DNA of 64,000 nt, taken from assembly GCF_003334765.1 (NCBI RefSeq), contig NZ_QOWT01000006.1; one strand, given 5' to 3'. The position numbers were made by a program, and so were the translations under genes. The stretch comes from Escherichia coli. Lineage in GTDB: Bacteria; Pseudomonadota; Gammaproteobacteria; Enterobacterales; Enterobacteriaceae. This document shows positions 54,438-55,010 of the stretch, in pieces. Positions within the stretch are counted from its first letter, which is position 1. Every line of letters starts with the position of its first letter. Under the pieces are notes generated by a model that had not been told where the DNA came from, did no database searches, and worked only from the letters and a program-made list of their open reading frames with translations.

Positions 54438-54787
54438 TAGATAAAATTAAATCAAATGCGCGTGATTTAAGACGCAATCTCACTTTGCAGGAACGAAAGC
54501 TCTGGCGATATCTTCGCAGCCGACGTTTTAGTGATTTCAAATTTCGCCGTCAACATCCAGTGGGGAGCTACATTCTCGATTTTGCTTGCTGCTCGGCGCG
54601 TGTAGTCGTTGAGCTGGATGGTGGGCAGCATGATTTAGCAGTTGCCTATGATTCCAGGCGCACTAGCTGGCTTGAGTCGCAGGGCTGGACCGTGCTGCGT
54701 TTCTGGAATAACGAGATTGATTGTAATGAGGAGACGGTGCTGGAGAATATTCTGCAGGAACTGAACCGCCGGTCACCCTCTCCCTGA
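54434..54787 (+). CDS. ycjD: DUF559 endonuclease-like domain protein YcjD
   Basis: 117-aa ORF, apparent GTG start inside the stem-loop. Confidence 0.75.
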   Translation: MIDKIKSNARDLRRNLTLQERKLWRYLRSRRFSDFKFRRQHPVGSYILDFACCSARVVVELDGGQHDLAVAYDSRRTSWLESQGWTVLRFWNNEIDCNEETVLENILQELNRRSPSP

Positions 54788-54828
54788 AAGAGCGAGGGGG
54801 CAGACCGAGCCGAATAGCTGTTGTGGTG

Positions 54829-55010
54829 AAAACATGGAGACGGTGCTGGAGAATATTCGGCAAGGTCTGAACCGTCCCAGCCATCGCCATGAAAGGGTTA
54901 GGGGCTGTATGAGCCTGTTTGTTGCTGGGGTAACAATATTTGCACAATACGGTCCCCTCGCCCCTCTGGGGAGAGGGTTAGGGTGAGGGGAAAAGCGCCC
55001 CCCCTGCCGC
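54829..55010. repeat. Partial duplicate of the ycjD 3' end plus G/C-rich palindromic repeat
   Basis: ggagacggtgctggagaatattc...ctgaaccg recurs at about 54731 and about 54836; followed by cccctcgcccctctggggagagggttagggtgagggg. Confidence 0.5.

Follow-up and report, generated by a model that had tools for sequence, protein, structure and literature searches.

The 3′ end of ycjD in Escherichia coli raises the question of why the last part of a nuclease-like gene recurs a short distance downstream in non-coding DNA, next to a G/C-rich palindrome, and whether gene, duplication and palindrome belong together. The window (the whole stretch of DNA that was analysed, 64 kb in length) has the E. coli K-12-type gene order sapD-sapF-ycjD-fabI-yciW. 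An initial annotation, made from the sequence, had read the region as a partial duplication of the ycjD 3′ end followed by a dispersed repeat, the footprint of an old rearrangement or of a repeat insertion. The features needed below are as follows, TMECO being the repeat family to which the palindrome belongs.

54434–54787, plus strand: ycjD, encoding a 117-aa DUF559 (Vsr-like PD-(D/E)XK) nuclease-fold protein (open reading frame list; Pfam, NCBIfam and PDB matches)
54730–54835, plus strand: duplication unit A, made up of 58 bp from the ycjD 3′ end (stop codon included) and 48 bp of spacer
54776–54798, minus strand: truncated TMECO of unit A, hairpin CCCTCTCCC-TGAAA-GAGCGAGGG, the loop of which holds the ycjD stop codon
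54836–54939, plus strand: duplication unit B, non-coding and decayed, matching unit A at 35/39 positions of the first 39 nt and at 71% overall
54875–54903, minus strand: putative decayed TMECO remnant of unit B, CCCAGCCATCGCCA-TGAAA-GGGTTAGGGG, aligned to the near-intact copy of the E69 allele
54955–54990, plus strand: BoxC/PIT/TMECO no. 9, type 'A mm', intact; CCCTCGCCC-CTCT-GGGGAGAGGG-TTA-GGGTGAGGGG
54437–55031, no strand assigned: variable cassette (ycjD, duplication and TMECOs), delimited by allele comparison and found in 3,378 of 5,426 E. coli genomes

A repeat search of the window located a direct repeat of 39 nt (54730–54768 and 54836–54874) with 35 of 39 positions identical (90%) and a start-to-start spacing of 106, so the reported recurrence of a ycjD-end motif about 105 bp downstream was borne out. 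The similarity extends further. Units A and B (106 and 104 bp, head to tail) align from end to end with 77 identities in 109 positions and a score of 41, while 2000 shuffles gave a mean of -15.2 (sd 5.1) and a maximum of 5; self-alignment, the check originally proposed, yields a similarity beyond every one of the shuffles, and the 67 nt that remain past the first 39 also exceed all 2000. A duplication of the ycjD 3′ end had been rightly called, but not its extent, which is a whole head-to-tail unit of about 106 bp and not a 39-nt motif. The units are of matching length, lie head to tail and are homologous throughout, the configuration of a tandem duplication. Tandem Repeats Finder did not detect it even at a minimum score of 30, because the copies are only about 71% alike.

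Comparison of alleles places the duplication in time. Between the K-12, KE47 and E69 alleles, A units are 76–90% and B units 78–88% identical, and every comparison of an A with a B unit is lower (65–78%; within an allele, 71% in K-12, 73% in KE47 and 78% in E69). The duplication is therefore older than the split of the compared alleles. A diagnostic junction of A tail and B head is present in 3,318 of the 3,378 ycjD-bearing E. coli genomes (~98%), and unit B has decayed far less in E69 (L007) and KE47 (L003) than in K-12. The tails of A and B are homologous in register and only ~60% identical, which is much divergence within one species and counts against the duplication account. The ancestral state could have been single-copy and polymorphic, because single-copy alleles (2CC, E1V33) also occur in divergent lineages. 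Read in frame, unit B forms a 50-aa ATG open reading frame at 54834–54986.

The palindrome at 54955–54990 is a known element, a member of the BoxC/PIT/TMECO family. The TMECO consensus CCCTCNCCC-N3–6-GGGNGAGGG-N3-GGGNGAGGG, written as a regular expression, matches the plus strand at 54955–54989 with 0 mismatches, and 54955–54990 is letter-identical to entry 9 of Table 1 in Holder et al. (2015, PMC4666352), at MG1655 1,351,204–1,351,239. The TMECO 9 coordinates agree at locus L004, between fabI and ycjD, the two genes named as its neighbours in Table S2 of the same study (Holder et al. 2015, PMC4666352). Within the 64-kb window, the G/C-rich motif (54954–54990) occurs once. Across 5,426 complete E. 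coli genomes it was found at 80,879 places (median 16, range 1–29 per genome), outside annotated genes throughout among the matches listed. The resemblance to a dispersed enterobacterial intergenic repeat, noted at the outset, was correct, and the genome-wide count shows that the motif is not unique.

The same repeat goes by the earlier names BoxC and PIT, for potential intrastrand triplex (Bergler et al. 1992; Hoyne et al. 2000; Holder et al. 2015, PMC4666352). Holder et al. (2015, PMC4666352) credit the first description to Bergler et al. 1992, who sequenced envM (= fabI), and BoxC was thus very probably discovered through TMECO 9. Oligonucleotides of type A mm form an intrastrand purine-motif triplex in vitro, none having been detected in vivo, and excess sequence variability surrounds TMECOs (Holder et al. 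2015, PMC4666352). As summarised elsewhere, the in vivo tests of Hoyne & Maher (2002) found promoter, terminator and replication effects of PIT elements all to be absent. TMECOs have been held to be always intergenic, with flanking genes that have nothing in common (Holder et al. 2015, PMC4666352). TMECO 9 is intergenic; a second copy at this locus, at the end of ycjD, is not.

This second copy is best seen in fuller alleles. In KE47, E69, 2CC and E1V33 the ycjD product terminates in ...SPSPQPSP*, and the last eight codons, the stop codon and the next 11 bases make up a strict minus-strand TMECO; in 2CC (L002) and KE47 (L003), a strict-consensus TMECO lies at 1877–1911 on the minus strand and overlaps the end of the coding sequence at 1900. 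The repeat beside a DUF559 gene that had been pointed out is accurately described for TMECO 9, but the relationship is not only one of adjacency, since the stop codon of ycjD itself is within a TMECO in these alleles. In the window, where the stop codon is TGA (54785–54787), the third block of the unit A element has gone with a 12-bp deletion between 54775 and 54776 relative to KE47, E69 and E1V33. The unit B element is nearly intact in E69 (CACCCTCACCCCAGCCCTCTCCC-TGAAA-GG...). The remnants of units A and B in the window do not match the consensus even at 4 substitutions, and they are called decayed TMECOs solely by orthology with intact copies in other alleles. The 12–13-bp indels in units A and B each delete exactly one G/C block in the allele alignments.

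With a consensus minus-strand TMECO spanning the stop codon of ycjD in KE47, 2CC and E69, the duplication copied a TMECO too. On sequence comparison, the K-12-type locus reads as one intact and two decayed TMECOs, and as an inverted TMECO pair (the ycjD-end copy and TMECO 9) with the duplication between the partners. The single-copy 2CC allele consists of an A head joined to a B tail at GGGGGC, and would most simply be explained by a later deletion between the repeats. Fused and read-through ycjD protein alleles also exist among database proteins: the 134–160-aa entries P0004, P0006, P0008, P0009, P0012, P0016, P0018, P0022 and P0074 are ycjD alleles in which the gene is fused into, or read through, the repeats via indels or A/B recombination.

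The ycjD-repeat cassette is dispensable in E. coli, a point not raised in the initial annotation. A ycjD 3′ end was found in 3,378 of the 5,426 genomes, leaving ~38% without the cassette, and a wider ycjD-fabI query was at least 80% covered in 3,346 of 5,426. Genomes of the O157:H7 type carry an 8-kb island in the same slot (L005 13308–20795), with genes for an MFS transporter, an outer-membrane factor, a frameshifted RND permease, an adaptor subunit and a TetR regulator; no TMECO was found at the edges of this island. Homology between the K-12 and O157 types breaks on the left at the ycjD start codon, just past a conserved hairpin distal to sapF, and resumes on the right ~40 bp beyond TMECO 9. 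None of the 5,426 E. coli genomes has more than two copies of the ycjD 3′ end, and these are A and B only. Solo TMECOs as relics of DUF559 cassettes were rejected for this reason, there being no ycjD fragment beside other TMECOs. A plasmid- or phage-borne cassette was also rejected, given its near-absence from such sequences: among 72,556 plasmid records there were 34 with it, for the most part chromids or chromosomes under a wrong label, and among 50,697 phage records there were 2.

YcjD matches Pfam PF04480 over its full length (E 1.5e-49, model positions 2–109 of 109) and scores 267.8 bits against the NCBIfam equivalog NF007294 (cut-off 218). The nearest solved structure is PDB 3HRL, an 'endonuclease-like protein' of Neisseria gonorrhoeae (E 1e-27). 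Six putative catalytic residues (D49, E60, D62, H66, D73 and R76) are invariant across 21 diverse homologues of 49–88% identity, and YcjD therefore looks like an active nuclease, as judged from sequence. A published survey assigns DUF559, the Vsr mismatch endonuclease and I-Bth0305I, a homing endonuclease of an intron, to a common clade (Steczkiewicz et al. 2012, PMC3424549). PADLOC found no defence-system match, and a PHROGs search returned weak matches only.

Homologues of YcjD in Enterobacter, Klebsiella, Kluyvera, Lelliottia, Phytobacter and others are only 55–70% identical to it, and almost all of these enterobacterial proteins terminate in PSPRPSP*, which is a minus-strand type-B TMECO in translation. 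A scan of 80 DUF559 loci from species-representative genomes (1.31 Mb) found a strict TMECO at exactly -21 to +13 of the DUF559 stop codon in 21 loci, each from a different genome, of about ten enterobacterial genera, most of them with a plus-strand partner 25–170 bp downstream. A TMECO pair lies 3′ of the DUF559 gene in 25 of 29 enterobacterial loci, and ~40 of the 66 strict TMECOs in the 1.31 Mb are within 300 bp of a DUF559 stop codon. Clustering of the flanks, together with NCBIfam, placed these genes in three unrelated chromosomal contexts.

Context 1: sapF|fabI, Escherichia
Context 2: hemW|yggN-trmB-mutY, 20 Enterobacter-like genomes
Context 3: cysP|yfeX-yfeY, 8 Kluyvera or Klebsiella genomes

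The gene and its inverted TMECO pair are a conserved module that occupies different chromosomal sites in different genera. In E. asburiae, a species with 143 TMECOs, the entire module fills a gap of 486 bp. The hemW|yggN and cysP|yfeX slots of K-12 hold neither a DUF559 gene or remnant nor a TMECO, and the idea that the slots of other genera reflect decay of a shared ancestral site was rejected on that ground. What had been described as an old rearrangement or repeat insertion is an old rearrangement as far as the duplication goes; of an insertion of the repeat there is no sign. The association of DUF559 with TMECOs is the new part of this work, together with the stop-codon copy and the decayed third copy at ycjD, the identity of TMECO 9 being already known. 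No link between DUF559 and BoxC, TMECO or PIT was found in the part of the literature covered, and a prior description is possible. Independent tandem duplications of TMECO plus spacer were seen 3′ of the DUF559 homologue in five other genera (L008, L014, L020, L023 and L031).

Beyond the strict TMECO, a generalised three-block motif was used, with no G allowed in the C block. This finder misses 'mm' TMECOs, TMECO 9 among them, and the enrichment figures are therefore conservative. The motif lies at the stop codon of the DUF559 gene in 44 of 64 loci, compared with 0.7% expected (P about 2e-79). Within these loci it was seen at ~69% of DUF559 ends and at ~2% of the ends of other genes. Among non-enterobacterial loci, the motif occurs at most 300 bp upstream of the gene in 18 of 35 (P about 1.5e-27) and downstream in 23 of 35, and the gene is bracketed on both sides in 14 of 35, often in inverted orientation. 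There are 98 motifs within ~600 bp of a DUF559 gene and 24 in the remaining 0.92 Mb. Motif identity is 0.88 within a locus and 0.74 between loci, a value reached by none of 5000 permutations. Spot checks in Neisseria, Azospirillum and Picosynechococcus confirmed bracketing by a local variant. The association is conserved across contexts and phyla, and the repeats co-vary with the genome in which they are found.

Some of these distant loci have features of their own. In N. gonorrhoeae, an array of motif pairs with a period of 281 bp lies 3′ of the DUF559 gene (L088 3496–4194), and one copy is 119 bp upstream. On plasmid pAQ6 of Picosynechococcus sp. PCC 7002 (L090 2800–3500), the DUF559 gene is bracketed by a CCCCC-loop-GGGGG-gap-GGGGG variant and also by a second repeat, GCCCCTAAATCCCCG...GGGGACTTTCTACTGGTG; its neighbours are PIN-domain, DUF499 and DUF1156 genes. 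In distant proteobacteria (L075 and L085, 3′ flank; L052, L058 and L083; L046 and L069), the DUF559 cassette is directly upstream of housekeeping genes, which judging from their N-terminal sequences alone are methionine synthase-like, biotin-carboxylase-type and PrpF-like. This suggests that these cassettes, too, may sit in tight intergenic slots.

If the gene has a bearing on the repeat family, then the number of repeats might be expected to follow its presence. Among E. coli genomes sampled across the species, TMECO places number 11–28 where the ycjD locus is present (median 19, n=37) and 1–18 where it is absent (median 7, n=22), a difference (Mann-Whitney p 1e-9) that is confounded by phylogroup. 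Published counts (Table S1) are 1–2 in B2 strains, 10–11 in O157/O55 and 18–30 in A/B1 (Holder et al. 2015, PMC4666352), and as the difference follows phylogroups, it reflects very few independent events. TMECOs clearly persist long without ycjD, with 10–12 copies remaining in O157:H7 and up to 18 in some other genomes that do not have the gene. The repeat is absent from Salmonella (Holder et al. 2015, PMC4666352); Salmonella and Citrobacter appear in neither the TMECO table, the best 120 YcjD protein matches nor the 80 DUF559 loci. Klebsiella DUF559 clusters are named for variicola, quasipneumoniae, aerogenes and oxytoca and not for pneumoniae, a distribution fitted by the TMECO counts of 27–38 in K. 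variicola and 8–12 in K. pneumoniae. The K. aerogenes and K. oxytoca genomes have few TMECOs and do not fit, the gene being known from strains of both species that are not necessarily those counted. Overall, a dependence of TMECO abundance on a ycjD-type gene is suggestive only.

In its consensus, multi-copy dispersal, tendency to inverted pairing of A and B types and local instability, the element at 54955–54990 agrees with BoxC/PIT/TMECO as published. The locus departs from the published picture in three ways: the ycjD-end copy overlaps a stop codon (intact in other alleles, truncated in K-12), the third copy is a decayed duplicate, and a flanking gene family, DUF559, is common to genera and phyla.

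A parallel is offered by REP/REPIN elements and their RAYT genes, reportedly the subject of work by Nunvar et al. in 2010 and by Bertels & Rainey in 2011. There, as here, a DNA-cutting enzyme (putative for YcjD) is encoded by a single-copy chromosomal, non-plasmid gene that has copies of a short, dispersed palindrome on its flanks; these copies vary together with the repeat family of their genome, inverted doublets are frequent, and lineages without the gene have fewer repeats, which in the present case is confounded by phylogeny. The differences are that YcjD has the Vsr-like PD-(D/E)XK fold of DUF559 and is not an HUH/Y1 transposase, that TMECO is a three-block, triplex-capable motif, and that both enterobacterial TMECOs are 3′ of the gene, one of them supplying its stop codon. 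The profile matches of YcjD are to DUF559 and the related REase_MTES_1575 only, with none to HUH or IS200-like Y1 transposases, and its identification as a RAYT was rejected; it would be an analogue at most. With Vsr and the EDxHD homing endonuclease I-Bth0305I, YcjD shares a fold and conserved acidic and histidine residues, and the two enzymes show that distorted or mismatched DNA can be recognised and that cutting can serve selfish spread. In contrast to them, YcjD lacks a partner methyltransferase, and its gene lies in neither an intron nor a phage. Vsr-like nucleases are DNA-cutting enzymes that are not known to transpose DNA, which counts against a partnership.

These observations can be combined into a history of the locus. 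In it, ycjD is a DUF559 gene in which a minus-strand BoxC/TMECO supplies the final codons and the stop, with the plus-strand TMECO 9 (54955–54990) as the inverted partner, gene and repeats forming a conserved module. Early in Escherichia, a segment of ~106–118 bp comprising the ycjD end, the TMECO and spacer would have been duplicated head to tail. Slipped-strand or unequal recombination at the structure-prone repeats is the proposed mechanism, because such duplications recur in five genera, an array is present in N. gonorrhoeae and TMECO instability has been published. Unit A would then have been held under coding constraint, and in the K-12 lineage unit B and both minus-strand TMECOs would have decayed, with a 12-bp loss in A and a 13-bp loss plus substitutions in B. 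Renewed recombination between A and B would have produced the rare single-copy and fused-ORF alleles. We regard this account as a whole (conserved module, early tandem duplication, later decay) as likely.

Other origins of the repeat are hard to reconcile with the data. Chance similarity of G/C-rich, low-complexity sequence might have been entertained for a motif as short as the 39 nt first reported, but no shuffle came near the observed score and two orthologous copies are conserved in divergent alleles, by which this source is refuted; the probability left to it is negligible. Unit B might instead be what is left of another, diverged DUF559 gene, namely its 3′ end and TMECO, imported by TMECO-TMECO recombination. 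Homology does begin abruptly at GGAGNCGG, the first 39 nt of the A/B alignment are far better conserved than the rest, and TMECO loci are prone to recombination (Holder et al. 2015, PMC4666352). Such an import is nevertheless improbable, as the tails 3′ of the TMECO are homologous in the exact register of a tandem duplication, no DUF559-like reading frame lies upstream of unit B, a third ycjD-like fragment occurs in 0 of 5,426 genomes and, recombinant ycjD alleles excepted, no database homologue ends in the copy B sequence.

A more substantial alternative concerns not the duplication, which would be ordinary slippage, but the link between gene and repeat. TMECO could be a conserved structure at the 3′ end of the transcript (a stabiliser or terminator), or the flanks of DUF559 genes could be a preferred landing site, the nuclease having nothing to do with the repeat family. 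The survival of TMECOs in lineages that do not have ycjD is in keeping with this, as is the position of only 1–3 of the ~23 K-12 TMECOs at ycjD; the gene occupies tight intergenic slots, where structured repeats often accumulate, and no footprints of mobility were seen. It explains less readily why the register of -21 to +13 is fixed across three unrelated chromosomal contexts, why copies of the genome's own variant stand on either side of the gene in distant phyla, and why the motif is so rare at other gene ends in the same loci; terminator activity of PIT elements was also absent in the published tests, as far as these are summarised. We consider mere proximity a serious possibility, with a probability somewhat short of even. 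The preferred reading, to which we lean modestly from the pattern of association, is that the DUF559 nuclease and the TMECO family are causally linked. What form the link would take is more speculative. The nuclease might act on TMECO DNA and spread or maintain the family as RAYT does for REP/REPIN, an analogy that we put forward tentatively. Equally tentative is the proposal that YcjD-type nucleases are the cognate enzymes of BoxC/TMECO-type triplex repeats, in which case they might recognise the hairpin or triplex, perhaps through a conserved G-A mismatch in the stem, and their cutting could drive copying, spread, homogenisation or turnover of the repeats.

The duplication of the ycjD 3′ end and the BoxC copy are, by themselves, ordinary. 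BoxC/PIT/TMECO repeats, on record since 1992, fold into very stable triplexes in vitro and are markers of unstable loci, and no origin, function or partner protein was found for them; the association with DUF559 genes makes YcjD a candidate partner. If the link is functional, YcjD would be a small, purifiable candidate from a family with a solved structure (3HRL) and so open to direct experiments, it would provide the first biological role for DUF559, which is among the commonest uncharacterised bacterial nuclease families, and the coexistence of a chromosomal gene with a short-repeat family would be known in a second case, one of different chemistry. If YcjD-type enzymes are indeed cognate to the repeats, this would amount to a second, mechanistically distinct system of the REP-RAYT kind, extending from enterobacteria to cyanobacteria, and the duplication in the window would be a by-product of nuclease activity at the gene's own repeat.

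Two further observations concern the gene itself. An Rfam search (E<=1) over 54300–55200 found no RNA family, returning chance microRNA-type matches (at the sapF hairpin) and one sub-threshold sRNA. The hairpin is formed by a perfect 17-bp inverted repeat at 54393–54437, just 3′ of sapF (RNA fold -31.5 kcal/mol, z -6.9), the right arm of which includes the annotated GTG start codon of ycjD (54434). In the O157-type allele the outer stem is kept, with a compensatory change of T-A to C-G. It probably belongs to the 3′ end of sapF and in addition masks the start site of ycjD. In E. coli ETEC6 (NZ_CP041627.1, 1404663–1406200), an IS1 lies inside ycjD and splits it into two annotated DUF559 fragments.
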